64,000 nucleotides of DNA, taken from Alloascoidea hylecoeti (taxonomy: Eukaryota). The notes below the pieces were generated by a model that was not told the DNA's origin, did no database searches, and saw only the letters and a list, made by a program, of their open reading frames with translations. Within the stretch, counting starts at the first letter, position 1, and each line of letters begins with the position of its first letter. Made by a program: the position numbers and the translations under genes. Below, in pieces: positions 17,301 through 50,119 of the stretch. The stretch covers positions 1,267,566 through 1,331,565 of the forward strand of contig BCKZ01000004.1 of assembly GCA_001600815.1 (NCBI GenBank), read 5' to 3'.

Positions 17301-17614
17301 TTATTTGAAAGATTCAGAAACATGGTCAGCGGCCTCAGCAACTTTTCCTTTAGCAGATTGTTTTTCTGTAGATGCTTTATCAGCACCTTTTTGAAATGTA
17401 CTTTTGTCATCTTCTGGTTGAGCTTCTTTACCAAATTTGTCAAGGTAGTCTGTTCCTTTCTCTTGTACTTGTTCTAATGTATCTTTTTCAGAGTCTGGTT
17501 TGATAGCTTCTTTAGCTTTATCAACGAAACTTTTTCTTCCGACTATATCAAGAATAAATTATTAGAAATTGCTCAATTGATCCATAGAAAATATCAAAAC
17601 TTACCGTCAGACAT
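17301..17614 (-). CDS. HSP12: Hsp12/Hsp9-family small stress protein, copy 1 (83 aa); exons 17614-17605 and 17542-17301
   Basis: Spliced product MSDVGRKSFVDKAKEAIKPDSEKDTLEQVQEKGTDYLDK…AEAADHVSESFK matches the Hsp12 signature (MSDxGRKxFxxKAxExxKPDS); intron GTAAGT…CTAAT…TAG. Not in the ORF track. Confidence 0.92.
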
Positions 17615-18688: not shown

Positions 18689-18989
18689 TCAGTAACTTTC
18701 ATATTTTTTATTATTATCGTGATGAGTTTTACCTTTAGATATTTTATCAGAAATCTTTTGAAGTGTACCCTTATCATGTCGTGGTTCAACATGTTTAGCA
18801 GCTTTGTCCATGTAATCTGTTCGCTTCTCTTGAGCCTTTTCTAATGAATTCTTTTTAGAATTTGGCTTAATAGCTTCTTCAGCTTTATCAAAGAAACTTT
18901 TTCTTCCAGCTATATCGAGAATATTTATTAGAAAAAGATGCATAGAAGTAATATTGATTGAATACATATCAAAACTTACAGTCAAGCAT
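18689..18989 (-). CDS. HSP12: Hsp12-family protein, copy 2 (76 aa); exons 18989-18980 and 18909-18689
   Basis: Same intron position and near-identical promoter as copy 1; MLDSGRKSFFDKAEEAIKPNSKK…KYESY; the ancestral C-terminus lies out of frame downstream. Confidence 0.82.
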
Positions 18990-19416
18990 TGTTGATTTGT
19001 AGTGGTTTTAATAGAAATAATAAGGTGTAATAATTTGTTGGTAAATTAATACTTATACAGAAAGAATATAAATAAAAGTGGAAATGATAGCTTTATATAG
19101 ATCACAATAAGTTGATCATTGGAAATGGTGATGTAACAATTATCACAGATATTATATAACTTCAGTAGCTTTGCTACTCATGATCAATATAATTCGGATG
19201 CTTTAGCTATAAGCTTAGAATTAGATGATGGTGTGTGGAAAGTTTTATAATGTTTTCATTGTACTGTACCACGTCGTATTATATTGATTAATATTATTAA
19301 TTTATGTAAAAATTATATTTTCTTCACCAATTTGTTTGGTCCACGTTTTTAATTCTTGTTACATCTACTATAATTAATTGTCTGTTGATTTGAACAATGA
19401 GTCGAAATTTTAACAT

Positions 19417-20156: not shown

Positions 20157-20495
20157 TCAATAGCGGTTATCACCTACATATCCATCGTTGCGACGTCCAC
20201 TGTTGTGATAGGAATTGTCATGATGAGCATTCTTTTTTTCTGTAGATAAACCATCAGAAATCTTTTGAAGAGGACCTTTGTGACTTTCTGGTTCAGTATG
20301 TTTAGCAAACTTGTCAACGTAGTCTGTTCTCTTCTCATGTACTTTTTGTTGTGTATTCTTTTGAGAGTTTGGCATGATAGCTTCTTTAGCTTTTTCAACG
20401 AAACTTTTTCTTCCAGCTATAACGTGAATAAATTAAATGTTAGAAAGAGATGCTTAGAAGTAATTGAATACATTTCAAAACTTACGGTCAGACAT
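20157..20495 (-). CDS. HSP12: Hsp12-family protein, copy 3 (89 aa); exons 20495-20486 and 20416-20157
   Basis: MSDPGRKSFVEKAKEAIMPNSQK…; conserved intron position; promoter nearly identical to that of copy 2; novel H/N/G/R/Y-rich C-terminus. Confidence 0.85.
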
Positions 20496-20948: not shown

Positions 20949-22282
20949 TTAAGCTCTAAGATAATTAGCATCAATTTTATTTAAATGTGATCCTAAACAT
21001 AATTGTAATTTCCTCCTATACATCACCGGATTTTGTAATTGAATTGGATTTCCTTCAAAATAAACAGATTCCAATAATTGACAATGTTTACCTAATTCTT
21101 TTTCAATATTATCAAAAGAATCGAATTTGTTATAACTTGCCCAAAAATCGTTTAATTTTGATAAATGTTGAATATTTGAAATTTTGGAAATGAAATTTCC
21201 AGTAATATCAATAATTGTTAAATTAGGATTATTTTCAAGTCCTGCTAATGATGTTAAACCATTATGAGTAATATATAATTCTTCTAAATTTTTTAAATTT
21301 TCTAAACCTGTAATTTCTCTAATTCTATTTGATTGAATTGATAAAACTCTTAATTTTTTTAAATTATCTAAACCTTCAATTTTTGTAATTTTATTTTTAC
21401 CTAACCATAATTCTTCTAAATTAACCAATTCATTTAATCCTTGAATTTTTCTAATTCTATTTGCACCTAGTTCCAAATATGTTAATTTTGAAAAATTATT
21501 CAATCCTTCAATTATTTCAATTTTATTTTGAACAAAATATAATTTACTTAAATTTATTAAGTTTGATATATTTTTAATATGTTTTATTTTATTAAAACTT
21601 AAATCTAATGATGAGAGATTTGTTAATTCATTTAAATGATGAGAAATATGTTTTATTCTATTATCATAAAGATCTATTTCTTCAATTGTTTTGCTAATTG
21701 ATTTAACACCACTTAAAGATGTGATTAAATTTTGTCTCAAATAAAGAGTCTAATAGTAATAAAATGAATCAATCGTTAGTTTTTTATTCCACTTGAGTAT
21801 CATTTTTCATACTTACCTTAAGATTCTTAAACCTTTCTAAATTTAAATTATCCAATGATTGAATCTTTAAATGAATTAATTCAATATAATCAGTATCATC
21901 TTCAATATCTTCCAACAAATCTATTCAAGCAATATTATCAATTAGTGAAATTGTCTTTGTTTATATTATGAACATTTATATTTAACAAACCTTGATCAGC
22001 ATCAATAACATCAGGATGATCATCATCAATCAATTCAATATTCATCCCTCTTTCCCCACCAGTATCAAGAATTGCACCATTTGGATTATTGTTATTTTCA
22101 ATTTCATTTTCATTGTCTGTATCTGCATATTCTGATTCACTTGTTGTATTGTGATGATCATCTTCTTCATGATCAATTCCAATTTGAAGTTTGTCTAATG
22201 AGTCTAAAACATGTACATGTTTATCTTGATCTTTATCTTTATCAAGATCCCGCTCGTTCGTAGAGGCTAGGTCTTTTGACAT
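20949..22282 (-). CDS. SDS22: PP1 regulatory subunit Sds22 (LRR protein); exons 22282-21991, 21920-21817, 21749-20949 (~398 aa)
   Basis: Acidic N-terminus, then DADQDLLEDIEDDTDYIELIHLKIQSL…LYLRQNLI, serial SDS22-type LRRs (LxxLxLxxNxIxxIxGL) and an LRR cap (YFEGNPIQ…YRRKL…IDA); two in-frame introns. Confidence 0.95.
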
Positions 22283-22529
22283 GATGAATATTGTAGATGG
22301 GTTCTTATTATAAAGTGTGGCGAATATGTTATATTTTGATGGATGGGTGAATGGGATCAATGAATGGGATCAATGAATGGAAAATTACAATAATAATATT
22401 TCAATATAAAGGATAATATTAATATTAATTGAAGTTTGATGTAGTTTATATTATTTTTACATGGTTTATATAAATGTGGATAAAAGTATAGTTAAATCGT
22501 ATAATCATAGTATTCGAAATGGTAATTAT

Positions 22530-23201
22530 TTATAAAGCTAATAGTTGATGTTAGTGACATCGCAATCGCAATCTTAATAATTATAACTCACCCTCTGTTT
22601 GACCCAAAATATAATTGATTGTCTTCTCAACAGTTGTAAGTTCTCCAGCAACATTACTAAAAGCATATAGTTAGTAACAGATATCAATCATAAACATCAA
22701 CACTTCAATAAAAGACATACTCTGGGATCTCAATATCAAACTCCTATTTTCGTAAATATTCCAGACAAATTAGTATGATAGATCATCCAATTATGTTAAT
22801 TATAATTGTTTCATACCTCTTCAATGGCAACGGAGGCTTCAATGGCATATAACTCATCAAATCCTAGATGCTTGACGATATCTGTCTCTAGACCCAACTG
22901 TTTAATGAAACATTAGTTATATCGAAAGGTAAATTATAAGTCTGTAATTGATCCATACGTTACTAATGGGTTTCTAGGGAATAAAATGAACTTGTTAGAT
23001 CATCATCATTTAATGGGCAAAAAAAGTACTCACAGCTGATGGAAAAGAACCCAAGACGTTATAGATTCGAGATTTAACCTCATCTCTCGTAAGTCTGCCA
23101 GAAGGGGTGACTGTAGCAGAAAAAAGCCTAACTGGAGCTCTGGAAGATGATCCTGTGGCAGCGGAGAGGGATCCTACTAATTTTGCAGTGTTTCTAAACA
23201 T
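22530..23201 (-). CDS. Mitochondrial acyl carrier protein-like (119 aa), lacking the DSL serine; exons 23201-23034, 22973-22959, 22897-22817, 22743-22721, 22656-22592, 22537-22530
   Basis: Five GT-AG introns with CTAAY branch sites splice to MFRNTAKLVGSLSAATGSSSRAPVRLFSATVTPSGRLTRDEVKSRIYNVLGSFPSAKPISNLGLETDIVKHLGFDELYAIEASVAIEEEFDIEIPDNVAGELTTVEKTINYILGQTEAL: an Arg/Ser-rich presequence plus the ACP signature AIEEEFDIEIPD. Confidence 0.88.
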
Positions 23202-23539
23202 ATCTTTTTGATTTGATTGTTCGATGTTTTGATGCAGACAAAAAGATTTCTATTTTATGTAGTCATATTACATAATCAGATACAGATATTAATTTATACA
23301 AAGTGAATAAGTTTTGGATTATTTCTCTCATTAAATTTGGAACATTATGCAATGCATTTCATTTTTGGACGAAAGATATTCATAATTCCTACTCATGGAG
23401 GAGCAAGTTACTGAAGGAGTCATTTTGATAATAAGCAATTCAAATCAACGTTATTAAACGGAAGTTTATTAAACGGAAGTTTACTTATAAATTTTATTCC
23501 GATCACCATCTAACCATGGAAATAATGATTCAAAAAACA

Positions 23540-33541: not shown

Positions 33542-34409
33542 AAGTATAGGATTTTATTACGTTGGAATAAAACCAGAATACAGAGGTTACTCGACATTCT
33601 TAAAGCCTTAGTGTGGTGAATGCATGAGTCAATCACTGTATCTACTATCTAATACTAGAGTCATCCAGCATTAAAAAAAGAATTGTAGGATCTCCATAAC
33701 GATTTCAAATTAAATATTAACTTTAAATTTGGAGACAATTAATATTATTGAGTTAGGTCTAGATTTGAGTTATAGGGGACAATCCACAACGCTCTCAGGT
33801 TTCCGCACCGGATATTTGAAATATATTATTAATTGTGCGTAGATATATTGATGTTTTTGATATTAATTATTCCTTGTTTATTTAGTTTATAATATAAACA
33901 ATTAAATCATTGTAATCAGTATGCTGAAATTGATCGACTTCGGGTTCAATGTTTCCAGTAAGTTGTGCCTTGATCAAAATCTTAACAACTTTTTGTTCAT
34001 TAGTAGTAAGTGTCAAGGGGGGTTTGACAATAGAAGGCATGAAAGTAGAGATTGTGTTAAAATATAAACTTCCATGATGGATGTTCGTTCCATTTGTAAA
34101 GTCTTCAATTTGAATAACATTCCCCGTGCTAGTTAATTCCATTAACGTTTGATACATCACCAGAATGACAATCTATTAATAAATCAGCACGGAAATGTTA
34201 AATACAATTATTGGTCAACTAGACACGAATTATACCAATTACAATTACAATAAGAAAAAAACGAAGTATCTAGGAAATCTTCAAAGGCCGAGCAAAAGCA
34301 CAAAAATATCCGATAGTTAGCGTCAATCTTCATACTCATCTAAAGAATATAAATTGTAATCAAGCGCAATCTAAATATTTACGGATTTGAAAAAACATTC
34401 TGGATCTCA

Positions 34410-34990
34410 TAAAACATTACAACTATGGAATGTTTTCAAAAGCTGTATTTCATCCTAGAATTTTTAGAAATGCTGAAAAATGCGAGACTTCAACATCATT
34501 TGTTGGATATAAAACAAGTCTTCCGGCTGCTACATTGGCTAGATTAGCACATACAACAGGTGAAAAAGAAAAGGGAATATTAGATTGTTACAAAACGGTA
34601 TATATTATTTAGATTTATATGATTAGTAATAATAATAATACATCAATGCCGTTGAATTATTGAAACGGAGCCAAGGAGCAATGATCAAATTTGGTTTATC
34701 CAACTATATGTTCAAAGAGAGAAACGTGAAAGGATGCTGAAGAGGATTATTCAAACTGGTAGATTGGAAGCTGTAGTTTTGACTCTATAAACGCCTGTTC
34801 TAGGTAAACGAGAAGGTGATGCAAGAGGATGAAGATGAGAAATAAAAAACTTCATTAACAGTAGGAGCATTTGTGTGAATGGTTACAACGACAGGATCGG
34901 AATTTACCCCTACAGAAAAAATCTTGGGAATCAGAAAGTCATATAGATTTATTACGCATATGACCAAACCCTTTAGTTATTAAAGAAATA
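34410..34990 (+). pseudogene. FMN-dependent alpha-hydroxy acid dehydrogenase (Cyb2/glycolate oxidase-like) pseudogene
   Basis: Fragments FSKAVFHPRIFRN…TSTSFVGYKTSLP, AATLARLAHTTGEK, QLYVQRE, PVLGKREGDAR and TKPLVIK across frames, with deletions and stops. Confidence 0.8.
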
Positions 34991-39177: not shown

Positions 39178-39732
39178 TTATTCGGAGTCCCCAAGTCCCT
39201 TAATTCCTCCCAAATCTGATTTAACCTCTCCATTCTCCAATTTGATTGGCTGAGCAGCACATAACACATAGAACATCCTCGCAATATCCACCTGACTCAG
39301 ATTCCTCCATGCATGCTTCGTCCCTCTTTGGACAAACACATCCCCCGGCCCCAACTCACGTGTCTCCCCCGAATCCATTACAATTTCCACTTTCCCACTA
39401 ACAACAACTCCATAATCAATTGTTTGGGTTCGGTGTAATGGAGTAGTGAATCCTGGAGGAATATCAAACATCCGCACTGTAACCCCATCTTCAGCAGTCA
39501 AATTTGTAGAACTATTGCATTCATTTTGATAACTTTTAAAATCTTCATCTTTATTTAAATTAACTGGAAATCCATGTGTTGAATAAACCATTCCTAATTG
39601 AGAAGTATGTTTGTCTGTACTTACTTCAATCCAAGGAACTTCACATTCTTTTTTAATTATGGATTCTCCATTTTCATTTACTTCACTGATATATCTTTTA
39701 GGTTTATCCATTTTAATTTGATTATNTTTCAT
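39178..39732 (-). CDS. Cupin (RmlC-like) domain protein; start could be ATG 39711 (MDKPKR)
   Basis: Cupin motifs PPGFTTPLHRTQTIDYGVVVSG and LGPGDVFVQRGTKHAWRN; one N base near the start. Confidence 0.9.
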   Translation of the reverse strand: MKXNQIKMDKPKRYISEVNENGESIIKKECEVPWIEVSTDKHTSQLGMVYSTHGFPVNLNKDEDFKSYQNECNSSTNLTAEDGVTVRMFDIPPGFTTPLHRTQTIDYGVVVSGKVEIVMDSGETRELGPGDVFVQRGTKHAWRNLSQVDIARMFYVLCAAQPIKLENGEVKSDLGGIKGLGDSE

Positions 39733-42749: not shown

Positions 42750-43201
42750 TCATATGGAACTCTCAAGTCCTTTAATTCCTCCCAAATCTGATTTAACCTC
42801 TCCATTCTCCAATTTGATTGGCTGAGCAGCACATAACACATAGAACATCCTCGCAATATCTACCTGACTTAGATTCCTCCATGCATGCTTCGTCCCTCTT
42901 TGGACAAACACATCCCCTGATCCCAACTCACGTGTCTCCCCCGAATCCATTACAATTTCCACTTTCCCACTAACAACAACTCCATAATCAATTGTTTGGG
43001 TTCGGCATAATCTTCATCATTATTTAAATTAATTGGAAATCCATGTGTTGAATAAACCATTGCTAATTGAGTAGTAAGATTATTCCCAGTTATTTCAACC
43101 CATGGAACTTCAGATTGCTTTTTAATTATGGATTCTCCATTTTCATTTACTTCACTGATATATCTTTTAGGTTTATCCATTTTAATTTGATTATATTTCA
43201 T
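42750..43201 (-). pseudogene. Cupin duplicate inactivated by an internal ~100-bp deletion and frameshift
   Basis: Sequence jumps from …NDED to RTQTIDY (equivalent to loss of ~39434-39540), removing the first metal-binding His and shifting frame. Confidence 0.88.
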
Positions 43202-45295: not shown

Positions 45296-45564
45296 TGTAG
45301 GTTAGATGATACAAAGAGGCCGGAGCGGATGGACGAAAGTGAAAAAATAGCGACAGACTGAGAAGTACCGATGTGGGTGTAGGCGTAGGCACGGGTGCAC
45401 GGGTGCACGGATTAGTAACGCATTACGTAAACATTCTATTATACGGTCGGAAATATCGGCAGTCGGATTGACCGGAAGCGGCGGATTGCTTTTTTCCTCT
45501 TTTATTGATTTTAATTTGATTTTTGGTGCTTTTCTTTCTCTGATTTGATTGTTAGTTGCTAATT

Positions 45565-48500
45565 ATGTCTTTTGAATCCACGAAATCTTCGACTGCCCCT
45601 TCCAAATCTTCAAATTTAAACATCCGTCAGAATATCCAACCTGCAAGTTCTCAGACAATTAACCAACAATCAACTTCCACTTCAGCCGAAAATGAAAATC
45701 GTAAAGAGATCCCAATAAACGACAAACCTCCACCAAATGCAAACGGAAGTGGGAAAAAATGGTATAACTTCTTTCACAAAAATGAAATAATATCCTCGTC
45801 TCCAAGGTCGATTTTTATAAATTTAGCATTACCTTCAAATATGCTGGATGACAAAAATCGACCTTTAATCCAATACCCAAGAAACAAAATTAGAACCACG
45901 AAGTATACTCCTCTAACTTTTATTCCTAAAAACATCTTTTTTCAATTCCAAAACATCGCCAACATCTACTTTTTATTTTGTATCATATTAGGTGTAAGTA
46001 ACCCTTGCTCAGTCATAGGATCTGCATACATTAACAATCACTAACTTTAAACAATGAATGACATAGGCTTTTGCAATCTTTGGTGTTTCTTCTCCTGCTT
46101 TAAGTGCTGTTCCTTTAATAGTAATCGTTATAATCACCGCTATAAAAGATGCCGTTGAAGATTCCAGACGTACAATATCTGATTCGGAATTAAATAATAC
46201 TCCTGTTTTTATATTACAAGGTCTAGAAAATTCAAATCATTTAGATGATAATATATCTTTATGGAGGAAATATAAAAAATTTAATACCAGAATATTGGTT
46301 ACTTTTTTACATTGGTTTATATCAATATTTAAATCAAAATCAAAATCAAAATCAAAATCTAAAAAAATTCATAATGATGACGATGATAATAATAGAGATT
46401 TAGAATTGTCTCAAGTTAGAACAAATATGACAATGGAAACTCCAAGACAATCACAAGTTTATTCCCGCCCATCACAAGCATATTCTAGACAACAACATGT
46501 CGATTCGGATTTTTTTAATAATCCAAATGAATCAATAATTGATAAGTCAATCCATCAACCTTCTTCATCAAATGTTAAATTTAAAAAAAATTATTGGAAA
46601 AATTTAAATGTTGGTGATATTTTGAGAATTCATAAAGATGAAGAAGTACCAGCTGATATTTTAATTATATCGGTATCTGATCCAGAAGGTACATGTTTTA
46701 TAGAAACTAAAAATTTAGATGGTGAAACAAATTTAAAATCAAGACATTCAATGCATTGTGGTAATGGTATTAAACATTCATTTGATTGTGAAAGAATGAA
46801 ATTTTGGTGTGATGTTGAACAACCACAACCAAATTTATATTCTTTTAATGGTGTTTTAAAATGGAATCATTCATCATCATCATCATCAGATGAAGAAAAA
46901 ATAAATTCTGAACCAATTGATATTAATAATATTTTATTACGTGGTTCAACTATAAGAAATACAAAATGGATTATTGGTATTGTATTATTTACTGGTCCAG
47001 AAACAAAAATTATGTTAAATGCTGGTATAACACCAACAAAAAGATCAAGAATTACACGAGAATTAAACGTTTCAATAATTACAAATTTTATTGTTTTATT
47101 TATAATATGTTTTGTATCAGGTATAATTAATGGTGTTTATTATCATCATAATTCATCATCAGAAGCTTTTTTTGGTTATGGTTCTTATGCCCATACACCT
47201 CCTAAAAATGGAATTGTTGCATTTTTTGTTGGTATTATATTATATCAAACTTTAGTACCAATTTCTTTATATATATCAATTGAAATTATTAAAACTTTCC
47301 AAGCTGGATTAATTTATAGTGATGTCTTAATGTATTTTGAAAAATTAGATTATCCATGTACACCAAAATCATGGAATATATCAGATGATTTAGGACAAAT
47401 TGAATATATTTTTAGTGATAAAACTGGTACATTAACACAAAATATAATGGAATTTAAAAAATTAACTTGTTCTGGAGAAAGTTTTGGATTAGTTTATACA
47501 GAAGCAATGATTGGATTACATAAAAGACAAGGGATTAATGTTCAAGAAGAAGAAATTGAAATTAAAAAATTAATTCATGATGATAAATTAAAAATGATTG
47601 ATAAATTACAAAATATAAGTAATTTAAAAGAAAGAGAATTAAATGAAAATAATTTAACTTTTATATCATCTGATTTTATAAATGTATTAACTGGTGAAAA
47701 AGGTGGTGAATTACAAAAAAATGCAAAAGATTTTTTATTTTCTTTAGCTGTTTGTCATACTGTTGTAACTGAAAGAAATGAAGGATCAATTGAATTTAAA
47801 GCAGAATCTCCTGATGAATCAGCTCTTGTTTCAACGGCATCAGATTTAGGATTTACATTTTTAAATCGTTCAAGAAATATAATTGAGTTAGATATTCAAG
47901 GTTTAAAACAAAGATTTAAAATTTTAGATATAATTGAATTTAATTCATCAAGAAAAAGAATGAGTGTTATAATTGAAATACCTAATGAGAATGGAGAACA
48001 TGAAATTAAATTAATTTGTAAAGGTGCTGATAATATAATTTATCAAAGATTAAATCCAAATTCAGATTCAAATTTATTAAAAGAAACAGCAATTCATTTA
48101 GAAAATTTTGCAAGGGATGGATTACGTACATTATGTATTGCATCAAAAACATTATCTCGAAAGGAATATAATGATTGGAAAATTCGTTATGATAATGCAT
48201 TATCATCTATAGAAAATCGAAATTTAAAAATTGAAATGGAAGCTGATTCAATTGAACAAGATTTAAATTTAATTGGTGGTACTGCTATTGAAGATAGATT
48301 ACAAGATGGTGTACCTGATTCAATTGAAATTTTAGGTCAAGCTGGGATTAAATTATGGGTTTTAACTGGTGATAAAGTTGAAACTGCTATAAATATTGGA
48401 TTTTCTTGTAATTTATTAGAAAATAATATGGAATTGTTAGTAATCACTTCAAAATCAAATTCTTCAAACAATAACAGTGATAATGAAAATGAAAATGGAG

Positions 48501-50119
48501 GCAGAACATTAAAAGAAATGAATGATTTACTAGATGATTATTTAAAAAAATATTTCAATTTAGAATTTAATGAATCAACATTAAAATTTGCAAAAAATGA
48601 TCATTCAAAACCAAGTTTAAATCATGCAATTGTAATTGATGGTGATTCATTAAATGAAATTATAAATTTTAAATTAGATGAAAAATTTGTTTTATTATGT
48701 AAACAATGTCGATCAGTTTTATGTTGTCGAGTAAGTCCATCACAAAAAGCAAAAGTTGTTTTAATGGTTAAAAAAACATTAGATGTAATGACTTTATCAA
48801 TTGGTGATGGTGCAAATGATATTGCAATGATTCAAGCTGCTGATGTTGGTGTTGGTATAGCTGGTGAAGAAGGTAGACAAGCAGTTATGTCTTCAGATTT
48901 TGGTTTGGCACAATTTAGATTTTTAACAAGGTTAATTTTAGTTCATGGTAGATGGTCATATAAGCGATTATCAGAAATGATTCCATGTTTTTTTTATAAA
49001 AATATTGTTTTCACTCTAAGTTTATTTTGGTATTCAATTTATAATGATTTTGATGGGTCTTATCTTTTTGAATTTACTTATTTGATGCTTTATAATTTGT
49101 TTTTTACTTCTTTACCTGTTATATTTATGGGGGTTTTAGATCAAGATGTAACAGATACTGTTTCATTATTAAATCCTCAATTATATATAACAGGAATTTT
49201 AAGAAAAGAATGGAATTTATATAAATTTTGGTTTTATATGATTGATGGAATTTATCAATCAGTTATATCATTTTATTTCCCATATTTGCTTTTTTATAAA
49301 GGAAACTTTACTTCTAAAAATGGTTTACCATTAGATCATAGATATTGGATTGGTGTTATGGTTTGTTCAATTTCAGTTATTTCTTGTAATGTTTATGTTT
49401 TATCACATCAAAAATGTTGGGATTGGTTAAGTATTATTATATTTTGGTTTAGTAATTTATTATTATTCTTTTGGACCGGTATTTGGAGTGCTGGTACATT
49501 TGCTGAAGAATTTTATAAATCTGCCCCACAAGTCTATGGATCTGTTGTATTTTGGGCAATTTTATTTGTTGGTATAATTGCAAATTTATTACCAAGGATT
49601 GTTTATGATACTTTTAAATCTATTTATTTTCCAAAAGATATTGATATTATCAGAGAACAAGCAAAATTAGGTGCATTTGATAATTATGTTAAACATGGTT
49701 ATGATCCAACTGCTCCAAAAACAATTAATATAAATAATGAAACCCAAAATCATAATAATGATAATTCAATTACAACAAGTTCAAATAATTTATCACCAGC
49801 TTCATCAACATATGATGAAGAAGCAAATATATCAAATCAATTACCTTCAACATCAACAACAAATAATGAAAATCCAAATGGTCGTCGTCGAAATTCATCA
49901 ATAATTAGTAAATTAATACCAAATAAACGTGTATTTTCATTAAAACCACCAAAAAGACCACAACAAATTTCAAATTCAGGATTGTTTAATATTTCAACAA
50001 GAACTTCTTTAGATGGTGTTAGATCTTCTGTTGATTTACCTGGTTTATCACAAGCTCACACATTACTTTCTTTACATACAACTCGTACAAGAGATTCACA
50101 CTCACATCTTCGGAGTTAA
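45565..50119 (+). CDS. DNF1: P4-type ATPase phospholipid flippase, Dnf1/Dnf2 type; exons 45565-45993 and 46067-50119 (~1493 aa)
   Basis: YPRNKIRTTKYTPLTF, NLDGET, PISLY, FSDKTGTLT, LTGDK and IGDGAND motifs; a 73-nt intron GTAAGT…CACTAAC…TAG joins IILG|AFAIFGV. Confidence 0.95.

Follow-up and report, generated by a model that had tools for sequence, protein, structure and literature searches.

Mitochondrial acyl carrier proteins (ACPs) are described as having two jobs. They act as acyl carriers in mitochondrial FASII and lipoate formation, and they bind LYR-motif proteins such as Isd11-Nfs1, complex I subunits and assembly factors, a contact made via the acidic helices of the ACP and its acyl-phosphopantetheine arm, as set out in the available portions of four reports (PMC8547962, PMC4381221, PMC4991935 and PMC7470841). 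According to the same portions, the cofactor phosphate contacts a conserved Arg of Isd11 (PMC8547962) and LYRM6 in Yarrowia complex I (PMC4381221), whilst Glu residues at +5 and +11 from the acceptor Ser pair with two residues, Tyr and Arg, in the LYR motif of Isd11 (PMC8547962). Yeast and human ACPs deprived of the cofactor by a Ser to Ala change are reported there to show little or no Isd11 binding (PMC8547962, citing Van Vranken 2016/2018 and Majmudar 2019). The mACP of Plasmodium, in which the Ser is replaced by Phe, is described as binding Isd11-Nfs1 without the cofactor (Falekun et al. 2021, PMC8547962), and Ser-less mACP homologues were also noted in Babesia, with Vitrella the only holder outside Apicomplexa that its authors found (PMC8547962). 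An artificial counterpart comes from Drosophila, where S99E and S99D 'phosphomimetic' forms of mtACP ran like the holo form on gels, as given in the part of the report available (Lambrechts et al. 2019, PMC6895606). A search of the literature, with subscription-only papers outside its scope, found neither a fungal Ser-less mitochondrial ACP nor a natural Glu at this site. Ser-less mitochondrial ACPs are thus already known, whereas the fungal case and the Glu described below are new in the literature searched. The first-pass annotation of this locus had raised the matter of a prior description, and the answer is divided in this way: Apicomplexa and Vitrella have one (PMC8547962), whilst for fungi, or with Glu, none turned up in the literature searched.

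The stretch of DNA analysed here (the window, 64 kb in full) carries an ACP-like gene on its minus strand. Six exons make up the model: exon 1 (23034..23201, 168 nt) holds the start codon, a putative presequence and helix I; exon 2 (22959..22973) is a 15-nt micro-exon with AG/GT borders that adds five residues to the helix I-II loop; exon 3 (22817..22897, 81 nt) covers loop and helix II with the former cofactor site; exon 4 (22721..22743, 23 nt) supplies the end of helix II and the conserved acidic stretch next to it; exon 5 (22592..22656, 65 nt) encodes helices III-IV; and exon 6 (22530..22537, 8 nt) contributes the last two residues and TAA. Joined, they give a stop-free reading frame of 360 nt, i.e. 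119 codons plus TAA, reproducing the exon lengths, intact splice signals and 119-aa product proposed in the first-pass annotation. The five short introns, spanning 22538..23033, lie at 23033-22974, 22958-22898, 22816-22744, 22720-22657 and 22591-22538 (60, 61, 73, 64 and 54 nt). All five begin with GT and end with AG, and in each the CTAA[CT] motif is present exactly once, its branch A lying 13-26 nt before the 3' end. This motif occurs 324 times in the 128 kb of both strands of the window, or about once per 395 nt, and five correctly placed copies in the predicted introns are therefore not a product of chance.

The two smallest exons were accepted because they fit the family. With exon 2 included, the helix I-II loop is as long as that of the homologues (best 120 of 252) and the alignment is gapless. 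The spliced C-terminus reads E-A, matching family columns in which E is found in 68 of 118 and A in 72 of 117 sequences among those best 120 of 252 homologues; reading through intron 5 instead would end the ORF three codons later. The 15-nt and 8-nt exons of the predicted model are in this respect backed by homology. GC content was 0.41 in the ACP exons, 0.28 in the introns and 0.18-0.27 in the flanks, in a genome of 30 % GC. GC3 of the gene was 0.32, high for the window; its use as a sign of expression was dropped, as GC3 does not rank the genes of the window by expected expression. The first 30 residues of the protein include four K/R, no D/E and 14 S/T/A, and the Arg of an R-x-F/Y-S stretch in exon 1 aligns with a family column that is at least 90 % conserved. 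No RNA run was found to contain the locus; a metatranscriptome run (X7) from the same study as one of the DNA runs (X1) gave nothing there and is uninformative on expression.

A set of reference ACPs was assembled by way of metagenome contigs, which were scanned with a motif of the protein. This yielded at least 120 loci, mostly bacterial, two of which (L010 and L011) are yeast mitochondrial ACP genes; the best 120 of 252 relatives of the L011 protein, with PF00550 in their precomputed annotation, formed the reference set. It includes named Acp1 proteins of many budding yeasts and of some filamentous fungi, and some entries are labelled 'similar to S. cerevisiae YKL192C ACP1'. Among the at least 120 metagenome loci sharing the helix II motif, six hold ACP-like ORFs that lack the Ser: the near-identical L034, L057 and L067 as well as L112 have Asp in its place, and L007 and L109 have Trp and continue into a P-loop GTPase-like region.

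The spliced protein matched the reference ACPs (best 120 of 252) with a top phmmer score of 71.4 bits, and a family HMM built from the same 120 aligned to residues 17-118 without gaps at 88.1 bits, confirming carrier-domain homology to PF00550 mitochondrial ACP over the whole four-helix domain. This score lies far below those that the reference ACPs themselves obtained (131.5-187.1 bits), and the closest identity to any of the best 120 of 252 was 48 % over the mature part. In a family tree of the 114 rows kept after seven had been dropped as duplicates or gappy, the window protein formed the longest terminal branch, its length of 0.97 exceeding the 0.54 of the second longest and a median of 0.04. 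By these measures the window protein clearly belongs with the Acp1 homologues, and just as clearly stands apart from them. By eye, its V-A-I-E-E-E-F and Y-I-L stretches resembled Yarrowia ACPM1 more than ACPM2 in the alignments. With S. cerevisiae Acp1 (YKL192C) and Yarrowia ACPM1 (PF00550) it shares its size, the four-helix domain and a gapless alignment, and probably the presequence. It differs from both in having Glu for the acceptor Ser together with seven further changes at near-invariant positions, in the five introns of its gene, and in its branch, by far the longest of the family.

Searches with parts of the gene were less productive. Pfam returned no matches to its single exons, and an exon-1 query against longer proteins gave nothing at E ≤ 10. 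The 33-residue exon-3 ORF found only a chance match in the PDB (E 1.4) and no look-alike carrier protein among 1.84 billion representatives, where its four matches (E 3e-4 to 6e-4) were repetitive proteins without a carrier domain. This is weak evidence that no such relatives exist, given that a query this short picks up close Glu-type relatives at most and that intron-split genes are under-represented. The ACP-like gene is apparently without an annotated entry in the protein collection; four neighbouring ORFs are present in it, as singletons at 90 % identity.

The acceptor column is occupied by Ser in 120 of 120 aligned ACPs (best 120 of 252) and by Glu in the window protein. The codons GAT GAG TTA TAT are indeed found at 22858-22847, as the first-pass annotation had read them, with the Glu (Glu76) encoded by GAG at 22853..22855 on the minus strand. 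GAG is at least two base changes away from every Ser codon (TCN, AGY) by the genetic code, as that annotation had also pointed out. Exon 3 reads HLGFDELYAIEASVAIEE where the family has D-L-G-L-D-S-L-D-T-V-E-L-L-V-A-I-E-E, and the annotation's claim that neighbouring residues had changed too holds: seven more near-invariant residues around the site are altered (F to I, D to H, L to F, D to Y, T to A, V to I and L to S), so that the changes touch 8 of the 13 conserved columns that positions 68-83 comprise. The Asp at +2, replaced by Tyr in the window protein, is presumably used by the transferase, going by bacterial ACP-AcpS complexes. Across the protein, 31 columns reach a conservation of at least 90 %, and the window protein deviates at 12 of them (27, 51, 68, 71, 74, 76, 78, 79, 80, 83, 97 and 100). 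The reference ACPs (best 120 of 252) deviate at far fewer of these 31 columns: none in 68 proteins, one in 24, two in 16, three in nine, four in two and six in one. The proportion changed in positions 68-83 (8 of 13) compares with 4 of 18 elsewhere (Fisher p = 0.06), and the clustering of changes around the cofactor site is thus suggestive, not significant. Directly after the changed stretch, positions 84-96 agree with the family consensus in every one of their 13 residues, and counting from the Ser site at position 76, Glu is kept at +5 and +11 (positions 81 and 87). Given Glu in place of the acceptor Ser and the altered recognition residues, the predicted protein cannot carry 4'-phosphopantetheine, nor could it serve mitochondrial fatty-acid or lipoate synthesis.

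Gene order ties the locus to ACP1. An SDS22/PPP1R7 orthologue of three exons (22282-21991, 21920-21817 and 21749-20949; gene 20949..22282, minus strand; exon borders taken from sequence) follows downstream on the same strand, its start lying 248 nt past the ACP stop. Its main ORF, 20949-21749, matches PPP1R7/SDS22 chains with E 7.1e-67, and its two introns, of the same type as those of the ACP gene, read GTTTGT...CACTAAT...AG and GTAAGT...AACTAAC...AG. A weak Pfam 'Hikeshi' match of ORF 21941-22369 was rejected, because this ORF proved to be the acidic exon 1 of SDS22. The ACP1 gene of S. cerevisiae is YKL192C, as the names of reference entries show, and SDS22 is YKL193C, its same-strand neighbour (PMC7140707, available portion), so that ACP1 lies upstream of SDS22 on the same strand in both. 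By this shared adjacency the window gene occupies the ancestral ACP1 position, an argument for its being the ACP1 orthologue and not a stray duplicate. The first-pass annotation had set the intact gene against 'many pseudogenes nearby', a contrast that we could not uphold: the broken-looking ORFs that were checked are intron-split genes, namely SDS22 with its three exons and the N-terminal exon of a flippase. The latter, a P4-ATPase gene at 45556-50119 on the plus strand, has its N-terminal ORF joined to the main ORF over a short GTAAGT...CACTAAC...AG intron at about 45995-46066, which again is of the ACP type.

The wider neighbourhood offered several further observations. Three HSP9/HSP12-domain ORFs stand in tandem on the minus strand (17304-17558, 18692-19045 and 20160-20432; E 1e-16 to 2e-18). 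A cupin-domain ORF (39178-39732, minus strand) has a partial second copy 3 kb away (42753-43013, minus strand), and four N at 39726, 39830, 39865 and 39952 fall one inside the first cupin ORF and three just past its upstream end. A lone 73-residue ORF at 34391-34609 on the plus strand weakly matches FMN-dependent dehydrogenase (E 2.4e-4, over profile positions 25-77) and may represent either a fragment or one exon of a split gene. A neighbouring 730-aa ORF had F-box look-alikes only. ORFs longer than 150 aa account for only about 28 % of the window, whose GC content is 30 %, and neither tRNA genes nor Rfam families at gathering score were found in its 64 kb. The calcineurin A gene (P0121; 14627-16114, minus strand) has its best named relatives among filamentous ascomycetes (64-67 % identity), and one further protein reaches 74 %; second in score is a UniRef entry labelled Homo sapiens (71 % identity over 71 % of the query), which looks like a mislabelled or contaminant record. 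Because calcineurin A is nearest to proteins of filamentous fungi and not to those of Saccharomycetaceae, the yeast would appear not to be close to Saccharomyces, and complex I and two ACPs may well be present.

Three other accounts of the Ser-less gene were weighed. One holds that it is an artefact of sequencing, assembly or gene modelling, the true gene having its Ser, or a canonical helix II lying in another exon; the tiny exons of 15 and 8 nt, the lack of an annotated protein and the empty exon-1 search of longer proteins lend it some colour. The contigs of three DNA runs (X1, X2 and X3), from three studies, nevertheless show 0 differences over the 1001 bases of 22400-23400, and none has a Ser codon, the assembly error that the first-pass annotation had named as a risk. 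One of these runs may be the window's own source, the others being separate sequencing efforts; one is a wood-decay metagenome and two bear one organism's label. Because the three agree over the locus, the Glu codon is not an assembly slip. A D/E-S-L/I/M/V-D/E/S/N motif is absent from all six frames of 22300-23500, and tblastn of the reference ACPs (best 120 of 252) against the 64-kb window revealed no second ACP-like piece; the window therefore holds neither a hidden exon nor a second copy. The six-exon model, moreover, fits the family gaplessly, loop length and C-terminus included. The artefact account is largely refuted, and we give it hardly any credence. A second account sees a young pseudogene or relic that lost its function with the Ser and has as yet gained no stop, frameshift or splice change. 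It can point to the longest branch of the family tree, to the 12 deviating columns of 31 that are highly conserved, and to the failure to find an exon-3 look-alike among 1.84 billion representatives; the branch and the low HMM score could also reflect a general loss of constraint. Against it stand the unbroken match to the consensus (13 of 13 residues) just past the altered stretch and an exon GC well above that of introns and flanks in a 30 % GC genome, together with a simulation of decay. Run on the present gene with substitutions only, indels ignored, and 20,000 trials per rate, this gave at 0.10 substitutions per site a probability of 0.0027 that at least 8 of the 13 conserved codons of 68-83 change and of 7.5e-4 that an open frame and all GT, AG and branch motifs survive. 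The corresponding values were 0.025 and 5e-5 at 0.15 substitutions per site; at 0.20, the former rose to 0.11, and frame and splice signals stayed intact in 0 of 20,000 trials. Including indels would make intact survival rarer still. Uniform drift is unlikely because decay that matches the changes at the site almost never spared frame and splice signals, and in the simulation it could not reach this level of change with 119 codons, 10 splice dinucleotides and five branch motifs intact. The pattern of changes does not fit uniform neutral decay, and favours the reading that the gene stayed under selection while its cofactor site changed. A very recent death after a long functional life without Ser would be expected to leave the same picture as a live gene. 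All in all, we regard a relic as improbable.

The account that comes closest to our own holds that the gene is one of two mitochondrial ACP paralogues, with a Ser-bearing, ACPM2-like copy elsewhere that would serve fatty-acid and lipoate synthesis and acyl-dependent signalling, and the window copy a redundant structural subunit, specialised or drifting. In both Yarrowia lipolytica and Pichia pastoris, complex I contains two ACPs, ACPM1 and ACPM2 (PMC2953923 and PMC4381221), both Yarrowia ACPM chains carry the Ser motif in the alignments, and the nearness of calcineurin A to filamentous fungi fits a lineage that may keep complex I. The window copy, on the other hand, occupies the ACP1 position beside SDS22, and of the two Yarrowia ACPs the ACPM1 type is essential (PMC4381221). 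Nor does it have a close relative among the best 120 of 252 homologues (top 48 % in the mature part), and a recent duplicate is not among them. We put this account just short of an even chance. It overlaps our preferred explanation, as the gene is Ser-less and maintained in both, and what it would remove is the claim of an ACP uncoupled from acylation. The explanation that we prefer, and consider somewhat probable, is that the window gene is the positional ACP1 orthologue, under selection and non-acylatable, and kept for partners such as Isd11 or other LYRM proteins. The maintained, non-acylatable pseudo-ACP proposed in the first-pass annotation finds support in the intact Acp1-type gene, the unmodifiable residue, the non-neutral pattern and the retained Glu residues of the LYR contact; its further proposals of a complex I subunit, a decoy or a Glu that mimics the phosphodiester charge are conjectural, and a part as a scaffold would be read from these features, as follows.

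The closest parallel is the mACP of Plasmodium falciparum (PF3D7_1208300). This protein, like that of the window, is a mitochondrial ACP in which an unmodifiable residue has taken the place of the acceptor Ser; Glu at +5 and +11 is kept in both, and the likeness would extend to a partner role with Isd11-Nfs1, which is inferred for the window protein (PMC8547962, available portion). The replacement itself differs, being Glu in the window, Phe in Plasmodium and Cys or Gly in Toxoplasma (PMC8547962, same portion). In Plasmodium, moreover, the mitochondrial FASII and the transferase are described as lost and Isd11 as co-changed (PMC8547962, same portion). Common descent with the apicomplexan mACPs was not found, the window protein fitting the budding-yeast Acp1 family and neighbourhood; because it is a budding-yeast Acp1 by sequence and by gene order, its likeness to the Plasmodium-type mACP is taken to be convergent. 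The Drosophila S99E and S99D forms share with it the kind of substitution and the site, and were treated as charge mimics of the holo form (PMC6895606). They were a laboratory gel marker, whereas the window Glu is natural and comes with further helix II changes.

A Ser-less ACP of this kind would drop the acyl-carrier job. What the window protein appears to keep is the putative presequence, the four-helix frame, the acidic face of helix II with the stretch after it, and the Glu residues at +5 and +11; we read a scaffold role from this because these are the features that the LYR-partner job needs, whilst the acyl job is impossible without Ser. The protein may thus act as a structural partner that stabilizes Isd11-Nfs1 without an acyl chain, as in Plasmodium, and further LYR-motif proteins or complex I modules are possible partners. 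The carboxylate of Glu76 may replace the cofactor phosphate at the conserved basic residue of the LYR protein, and so preserve some of that contact. Since the Ser to Ala forms of yeast and human ACP bind Isd11 poorly, the LYR partners would need to have co-adapted, as Isd11 of Plasmodium has. The boldest form of this proposal, that the only ACP1-type carrier of a free-living yeast has turned into a cofactor-free scaffold independently of apicomplexans, with Glu standing in for the phosphate, is tentative, and we think it rather doubtful.

In yeast and animals the acyl-phosphopantetheine arm couples acetyl-CoA supply to Fe-S synthesis and the assembly of the respiratory chain, since it is by this arm that LYR-motif proteins bind ACP. 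The natural exceptions described so far, apicomplexan parasites and Vitrella, have lost mitochondrial FASII (PMC8547962). If the boldest form of the proposal is true, acyl-ACP would cease to be sensed by Fe-S synthesis and LYR-dependent assembly in this yeast, and mitochondrial fatty acids and lipoate would either not be made or depend on another carrier. A Ser-to-Glu Acp1 occurring naturally in a free-living yeast would add a second case of independent origin, and in a group readily amenable to genetics. Such a system could tell whether a carboxylate can serve for the phosphate contact, which functions of ACP depend on acylation, and how LYR proteins co-adapt, and it would be of real interest to the mitochondrial FASII, LYR and Fe-S fields if its expression and sole-copy status hold.
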